Source of the DNA: Macrostomum lignano
Lineage: Eukaryota
Length of the DNA stretch: 64,000 bases
Direction of reading: 5' to 3'
Assembly: GCA_002269645.1 (NCBI GenBank)
Contig: NIVC01001432.1
Coordinates: 25,714 to 89,713 of the forward strand
In this document: positions 22,852 through 23,856 of the stretch, piece after piece
How positions within the stretch are numbered: position 1 is the first letter of the stretch
How the letters are laid out: each line of letters starts with the position of its first letter
Translations under genes and position numbers: made by a program
Notes under the pieces: model-generated
What the model saw: the letters and a program-made list of their open reading frames with translations, nothing else
Told to the model about the DNA's origin: nothing
The model's database searches: none

Positions 22852-23012
22852 CTCCTGATCCCTTTCCACCCTTTCCCTCAGCCACTCCCGAGCCCATCTT
22901 TTTCTCCTCTGCGCTCCCATTCGCTCACTGTACCCCTCGCGCGCTCCCATTGGCTGTAACCTCCTCTCAGTTAAATATACCTGATCCAACTTAGGACTCT
23001 TTACTAACTAAT

Positions 23013-23051
23013 TGCTCCTGAAGAAGGTTTTAAACCGAAACGCGTCGAGCA
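23013..23051 (+). ncRNA. Minimal type I hammerhead ribozyme (Penelope-like-element type)
   Basis: Stem I tgctc/gagca; core CTGAAGA; A plus stem II ggtt-tta-aacc; GAAA; palindromic CGCG stem III; GUC cleavage triplet ending at 23046. Confidence 0.8.
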
Positions 23052-23856
23052 CCAAATCCCTTTTTAGCTACTGTCTTTTTAGCCTTCCTTATTTTAAGTG
23101 CTCAGCGGCCGACTGGTCTGACGGATCAGTAATCCTTGTCCTAACCCTAACCCTAAGTAGGTGATAAAAACCTAGCCATGGGATTTGGGGGGGCGCCGAC
23201 GGGGATTTGTGGGGGTACCAAGAGGAATTCGGGAGTGCAGGTCATCTGATTGAGGGGGGCACGGCATCCTTACCCCCCTCCTGGCTACGCCCTGGCTTGG
23301 CGTAAAGTGGAATCTGTAAGCTGGGCTCTTGCGAGTGAACATGGAAATGCAGCGAGCTGAAATTTTAGGCATACTGTCTCAACATAATCCCCGATCATTT
23401 CCTAAAAAAGCTCCTAAAAAGAATGCCAAGAACTGTGTTTTTCCGGAAACTTATTGAGCAACCCTCGTAGTGAATTCGAGCGACGGGCTCATACACGAGC
23501 GCATGGCAAGTATGGCACGGCACGGCATGGCACGGCAAGTACGCGCTCGTAACTAGAGCGCTTGGCAAGGTTTCATATTTGACCCCAGACGCTTTTACAC
23601 AGTCAACATGTATAGTGTGAGAAAGTGTTTGTACGCACGATTTTCGAACTTCGAACTTCGAACTTCACCATTTTATCAACTAGATAAACCTTGAACCATG
23701 CCTGTTTACAGACATTGAAAATAGATATTTTTATCCGCCCAAACAAGATTATAAATATTAGTATGCTTTGACCAGAGGTAAAAAACTAAGCGATTTTACC
23801 GACCAGACTTCTGAAAACTTACTTAAAAATTCGTATAAATCCAAATCTGTTTTATC

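Follow-up and report, generated by a model that had tools for sequence, protein, structure and literature searches.

The hammerhead ribozyme motif in the 64-kb stretch of Macrostomum lignano DNA analysed here (hereafter the window) is very probably the 3′-end ribozyme of a 5′-truncated Penelope-like copy (21881–23156), which adjoins the start of a Gypsy pol gene and was likely inserted there with loss of the remainder. The motif follows a Gypsy gag gene on the same strand. This placement is likely the result of chance nesting, because the Penelope copy likely landed in a Gypsy element. The features on which this reading rests are the following (positions are those of the window).

18803–19229, plus strand: 3′ part of a Gypsy 5′ LTR, matching both LTRs of the intact copies L033 and L030
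19230–19360, plus strand: three PBS-like TGG...CAGCGG sequence motifs in tandem after the LTR, at 19230, 19285 and 19335
19424–21699, plus strand: Gypsy gag, frameshifted and repeat-swollen (Pfam Retrotrans_gag, E = 0.0011, under the curated cut-off)
21681–21886, plus strand: Gypsy pol stub, 90% identical to residues 2–53 of the L028 pol (1618 amino acids)
21881–21886, plus strand: TCCCCC microhomology between Gypsy pol and the Penelope 3′ region, read out at the 5′ junction
21881–23156, plus strand: 5′-truncated 3′ end of an endonuclease-positive Penelope-like element, with a C/T-rich 3′ region, hammerhead and telomere-repeat tail
22665–22851, no strand assigned: 187-bp MITE with terminal inverted repeats, flanked by an 8-bp target duplication, CTCCTGAT, at 22657–22664 and 22852–22859
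22949–22979, plus strand: ATTGG and TAAATATA motifs, a weak candidate for a pLTR promoter, only partly conserved
23013–23051, plus strand: minimal type I hammerhead ribozyme with full core and palindromic stem III, predicted to cut after C23046
23140–23156, plus strand: tail of two or more CCTAAC units, the reverse complement of TTAGGG, at the 3′ end of the element; a contig of sequencing run X8 bridges the junction

The hammerhead was read directly and placed by script. Stem I pairs TGCTC (23013–23017) with GAGCA (23047–23051), and encloses the core CTGAAGA (23018–23024), a single unpaired A at 23025, a GGTT/AACC stem II with a loop of 3–4 nt (23026–23036, with G23026 and C23036 as the G10.1–C11.1 pair), GAAA at 23037–23040, and the stem III palindrome ACGCGT at 23040–23045. 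A strict descriptor, demanding at least four Watson-Crick pairs in each of stems I and II, matched once in the window and never across 300 approximate dinucleotide shuffles. The intact minimal hammerhead with a palindromic stem III, described in an earlier note on this DNA, is confirmed. Matches to the bare core pattern do not exceed chance (four in the window, 9.4 expected), an Rfam scan at gathering scores does not detect the window hammerhead, and the 56-nt hammerhead folded as a single strand is no more stable than its shuffles (z = −0.81). In the genome contigs (G000), the family pattern has 11 exact matches, versus none for the reversed control. The stem III palindrome is kept in five of the six parsed copies of the hammerhead's Penelope family, where stem II varies in length in the loop only; two other families that were parsed show compensatory stem II pairs and stem III palindromes of their own (ACCGGT, ATAT).

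By computation, closure of stem III in a monomer costs ∼6 kcal/mol, and the ACGCGU duplex of two palindromes comes to −7.5 kcal/mol. A dimer requirement fits this anatomy and the literature, where the minimal hammerheads of Penelope elements, mostly found as solo motifs left by truncated elements, have as hallmarks a base added after A9 and a stem III palindrome (PMC4209133). The window motif resembles these in its type I core, the unpaired base between A9 and G10.1, the G10.1–C11.1 pair, the 5-bp helix I and the palindromic stem III, and its solo copy resembles those of truncated elements; its helix II, seen here in sequence only, has 4 bp, versus 7–8 bp in the Schistosoma examples (PMC4209133). 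No second hammerhead and no second LTR was found within the 64-kb window. The single hammerhead is likely unable to cut alone, because its stem III needs a second copy or the element's protein, and the window copy is therefore likely an inert remnant. Upstream of it, ATTGG lies at 22949 and TAAATATA at 22972. The reverse-CCAAT and TATA-like motifs reported earlier are present, but reading them as a promoter is weak, because the CCAAT-like motif is missing from some copies (ATTCG in C2492 and C3569).

The hammerhead element was located on 13 contigs, using searches with 22860–23140, with 21881–22660 and with the family pattern. By shared flanks, these 13 copies represent eight independent sites (window/C363, C3397/C2415/C3282, C538, C2492, C3569, C1688, C2976/C810/C809 and C2747). 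Matches begin at 21881–21882 in three long copies, and end at 23156. On C538, the segment lies directly 3′ of an ORF in which a CX4CX2C linker joins an RT to a GIY-YIG domain; the window segment is 85% and 88% identical to this downstream region (L018:5698–4639). The encoded protein (P0001) matches RVT_1 with an E-value of 1.2e-6 and GIY-YIG with an E-value of 0.016, both below the curated Pfam cut-offs, and the linker before GIY-YIG reads CNSARCRTC. It is 51% identical to ORF2 of a larger sister family in G000, for which there are 502 database relatives at E ≤ 1e-40; among the 120 listed, most are RT/GIY-YIG proteins. The statement that no Penelope ORF is present at the locus holds for the window.

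C538 is the only place where the RT and the hammerhead tail were found in one uninterrupted piece, and this copy is broken, with frameshifts, an insertion in ORF1 and a changed core G12. No intact or tandem copy of the hammerhead's Penelope family was found among the 81 of 1117 candidates scored. RT fragments are also present on C695, C3569, C1522 and C1600, and were counted as one event because they share both end points. The sister family is arranged as tandem 4.94-kb units, ∼99% alike, in the order hammerhead, ORF1, ORF2, and in three other Penelope families examined the hammerhead lies downstream of ORF2 in nine of ten loci. The copy on C3397/C2415/C3282 sits inside a Polinton-like element. 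This host (L015–L017) was recognized from an A32-type ATPase match and, by eye, from polymerase-like ORF pieces, and the Penelope end within it is ∼350 bp long. Of the two readings offered earlier for the window, a solo pLTR was correct in substance, as the segment is an orphan Penelope end, but not in supposing a short pLTR only, since it corresponds to a 1.1-kb 5′-truncated 3′ end.

The gag, judged by its relatives, belongs to an ordinary gag-pol Gypsy family. With 40 of 149 candidates scored, its 5′ part gives at least 41 DNA matches in G000, spread over 38 contigs, and the nine best gag loci beyond the window and its duplicate C363 were fetched for comparison. The 1618-residue pol of the family, which comprises protease, RT, RNase H and integrase, is represented by 1574–1618 residues in each of the nine loci, and none of them carries the Penelope ribozyme segment. 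In the three gag-pol copies tested, the LTR recurs about 8.3–8.5 kb downstream. The element had been described as gag-only, which is true of the window copy but not of the element type, and even here the gag is followed by ∼65 codons from the start of the pol frame; the 64-kb window lacks both the remaining pol and the 3′ LTR. The window gag has a frameshift near its start, with a stop near 19490, and a Gln/Pro-rich tandem repeat expanded to ∼1.4 kb (about 20180–21560), whereas in intact copies the gag is about 330 codons long. The PBS-like motifs presumably represent a tRNA-Leu match. Gag-only non-autonomous LTR elements of the TR-GAG type consist of two LTRs around a gag; the window differs from these in its pol stub, its missing 3′ LTR and the pol of all nine relatives.

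The intact Gypsy copies (L026–L034) have a third ORF after pol, of about 250–360 codons; in L028, the one scanned, it has no Pfam match. At 9028–12706 of the window, on the minus strand, lies an unrelated Gypsy pol, whose two frames encode protease, RT, RNase H and integrase. It was considered as the missing pol part and ruled out, being only 28–36% identical. Elsewhere in the window, amiloride-sensitive channel ORFs and a rhodopsin-family GPCR ORF are found at 44816–46879 and 50473–51810, there is a weak tRNA match at 55798–55867, and the repeat search is dominated by satellites.

Gag and ribozyme segment are neighbours at one of the eight independent sites, that of the window and C363, the latter being a ∼99% duplicate of the window locus. 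Correspondingly, the 38 gag contigs and the 13 hammerhead contigs have only C1432 and C363 in common. On C695, a locus with no hammerhead match, a 57%-identical gag of another family is found ∼2.4 kb away from the RT fragment. Four sequencing runs were compared, as contigs only. One X8 contig spans the 5′ junction without differences and another spans the 3′ end of the element, so the gag-Penelope chimera is not an assembly error. Contigs of run X3 depart from the window at 21886 into normal Gypsy pol sequence, and the gag-family DNA match to the window ends at 21886 in seven of the nine fetched copies, and at 21875 and 21870 in the other two. The MITE, which I take to be hAT-like from the length of its target duplication, is a later insertion into the Penelope copy; it is absent from the other Penelope copies and has very high depth in the sequencing runs. 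The Gypsy junction points to an insertion plus a deletion, but ectopic recombination at the microhomology would look alike. There is a published case of a Penelope element that joined another retroelement through 5′ microhomology and left no target duplication (PMC3846280).

In the parent RNA, ORF1 (ALKBH3-like) and ORF2 (RT, Cys linker and GIY-YIG) would be followed by a 3′ region of ∼1.2 kb, then by the hammerhead, and lastly by a (CCUAAC)n tract. After a nick of the target by the GIY-YIG domain, target-primed reverse transcription would set in within the AC-rich tract, ∼90 nt beyond the hammerhead; I propose that all intact copies end in this tract because reverse transcription starts there. 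For the window copy, the cDNA would have ended after ∼1.1 kb and have been joined to the Gypsy pol via TCCCCC, with the MITE entering afterwards. In vitro, reverse transcription by the lizard Poseidon element is reported to start in an AC-rich stretch downstream of its hammerhead, which cut only with protein present and was dispensable for insertion (PMC11167929).

Three other explanations were weighed against a truncated Penelope copy. The first is that a chimera formed by chance is now functional, with transcripts from the Gypsy LTR running through the gag and being cut or circularised at the hammerhead. Gag and ribozyme are on the same strand, the junction is found in both duplicate loci as well as in run X8, and contigs of run X1, which is guessed to be RNA, cover both parts. 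However, in the longest X1 piece of the region, 114 nt that differ from the window precede 21882, which is what a different Penelope copy would show; with a single insertion event seen, a gag frameshifted near its start, neither a second LTR nor a second hammerhead in 64 kb, and a monomer that pays ∼6 kcal/mol to close stem III, this explanation is very unlikely.

A smaller chance still attaches to mobility of the segment as a short SINE- or retrozyme-like element that is not autonomous and uses Penelope enzymes in trans, rather than as a truncated full copy. C1688 is an internally deleted derivative, with the AlkB part, no RT, and the tail, whose match starts within ∼20 nt of the start point in the window, and animal retrozymes have been proposed to derive from pLTRs (10.64898/2026.07.22.740005). 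Yet the 5′ ends of the copies vary (L018 positions 5836, 5698, 5215 and 4969), as they would for random 5′ truncation, and tandem units of 170–400 nt each with a hammerhead were not found, every locus having one hammerhead. The element resembles plant LTR and animal non-LTR retrozymes in placing a hammerhead in a mobile element (PMC4918200, PMC7229834), but it has neither the type III hammerhead in LTRs of the former, its type I motif lying outside the LTR element and having no counterpart in the nine fetched gag loci, nor the short tandem units of the latter.

The last, the other reading of the earlier note, is a retrozyme that encodes its own capsid and is mobile as a PBS-gag-ribozyme unit; it matches the order of these parts on one strand of the window, and yet has practically no probability left, given that pol is present and the segment missing in all nine fetched gag copies, seven of the eight independent hammerhead sites lack the gag, the segment follows a Penelope RT-GIY-YIG ORF on C538, gag adjoins it only here and in C363, and a pol stub separates the two.

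The 3′ end of the Penelope family is itself of interest. In 12 of the 13 copies it consists of 2–7 CCTAAC units, 89–99 nt past the cut site, and the same ending is found in a subfamily only ∼75% identical; in the 13th copy (C1688), other sequence takes over immediately past stem I. Two independent copies start directly at multi-kb (TAACCC)n arrays, with their 5′ end towards the array (L019:6110–9901 and L020:1–4547). The array on C2492 runs to the contig end, and that on C3569 follows an N gap. Long pure telomere arrays are rare in the genome (5229 overlapping 180-nt matches in 764 Mb). Six of the eight sites speak against telomere targeting, as they lack a long array and are embedded in Gypsy, Polinton-like or other DNA. 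The copy on C2492 is broken at an internal tract resembling TAACCC, and telomerase may have healed this break, which counts against targeting as well. A distal RT fragment on C3569, joined to a telomere array, was rejected as evidence, as an N gap lies between the two.

Two other insertions carry a short inverted (GGGTTA)n at their 5′ junction (L015:4830–4884; L035–L038), possibly from top-strand priming on the tail or from telomerase addition at a break. In the sister family, a (CT)n tract lies between hammerhead and ORF1, and runs into long (CT)n microsatellites (L042, L044, L054), which suggests that each family primes on its own microsatellite. On C2747 (L023:4143–4895), the terminal 50 bp of the element, which include the CCTAAC tail but not the hammerhead, are multiplied into a tandem array of ∼14 units.

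Upstream of the RT, C538 encodes a 2OG-Fe(II) oxygenase domain of the AlkB type (PF13532, E = 3.6e-26). This domain travels with the Penelope family, since it is 97% shared between C538 and the RT-deleted C1688 copy. In the tandem sister family, it is found within a 737-codon ORF1 (L052:1068–3278, L053, L055; C129, C1946, C3573), and APE-type LINEs on C1541, C1589 and C114 also carry it in their ORF1 (L058, L060, L061). With 150 of 168 candidates scored, at least 133 matches were counted in G000. All five complete domains that were aligned have the HxD...H and RxxxxxR residues, and among solved structures human ALKBH3 matches best (E = 5e-30; ALKBH5, E = 5e-5). ALKBH3 repairs m1A and m3C in single-stranded nucleic acid. 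The ORF1 domain is ALKBH3-like, and predicted to act in RNA repair. The sole close database protein to the AlkB-ORF1 is P0123, from Macrostomum lignano itself (NCBI; 99% identical). In a search for AlkB-ORF1 relatives outside the species, longer proteins gave one match among 1427 candidates, a protein of 2786 amino acids with PF13532 only, and a second search yielded just the protein of M. lignano itself among the 7999 candidates scored; both are weak evidence of absence.

The layout of the parent family is like that of the Neptune and Nematis PLEs, with an RT, a CX2–5CxxC linker, a C-terminal GIY-YIG and a hammerhead near the 3′ end, and the (CT)n end of the sister family is in keeping with their microsatellite bias (PMC8557442). 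An optional ORF1 is indicated for elements of this type in the legend of Fig. 1 of that paper, in which the terms 'AlkB' and 'oxygenase' have no occurrence; the parent family differs from those described there in its ALKBH3-like ORF1, its ∼1.2-kb 3′ region and its telomere-hexamer 3′ end. In the last respect, it resembles the Athena, Coprina and Terminon elements, where a hammerhead is likewise followed by reverse-complement telomere repeats, and to which the two copies that abut multi-kb telomere arrays with their truncated 5′ end are also similar (PMC8557442, PMC6431247). However, the parent family possesses a GIY-YIG while those are described as endonuclease-deficient, its repeats lie ∼90 nt from the ribozyme and not immediately after it, and it is not confined to chromosome ends, with two of eight sites at long arrays.

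The review PMC6431247 presents the combination of a hammerhead and a telomere-repeat end as confined to telomere-associated PLEs. In literature listings and abstracts, I found no report of an endonuclease-positive PLE with a TTAGGG tail, nor of AlkB in a Penelope or LINE ORF1, although Repbase-type annotations may hold either. The only retrotransposon precedent found for an AlkB-family domain is in Gypsy elements of the orchid Phalaenopsis (PMC9289625), where an ALKBH5-like m6A demethylase is carried by an LTR element, in contrast to the ALKBH3-like domain in the ORF1 of Penelope elements and APE-type LINEs described here.

Hammerheads at Penelope ends are already published, and the capsid-coding retrozyme is an artefact of nesting. 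The parent family, as far as its sequence tells, is new in two respects, the telomere-repeat tail on an endonuclease-positive element and the ALKBH3-like ORF1. Tentatively, and with rather more doubt than confidence, I suggest that it represents an undescribed Penelope lineage bridging the two known groups, which would have kept its GIY-YIG and yet prime on TTAGGG via its own (CCUAAC)n tail, and so could join telomeres or telomerase-healed breaks, while its ORF1, a module shared by Penelope elements and LINEs in this genome, may clear RT-blocking m1A and m3C from its own RNA. If this is true, an endonuclease-positive family with a telomere-repeat end would stand midway between elements that target microsatellites and those that target telomeres, bearing on the link between PLEs and telomerase, and the occurrence of an ALKBH3-like ORF1 in both Penelope elements and LINEs would make RT-blocking RNA methylation by the host testable as a restriction of retrotransposons.
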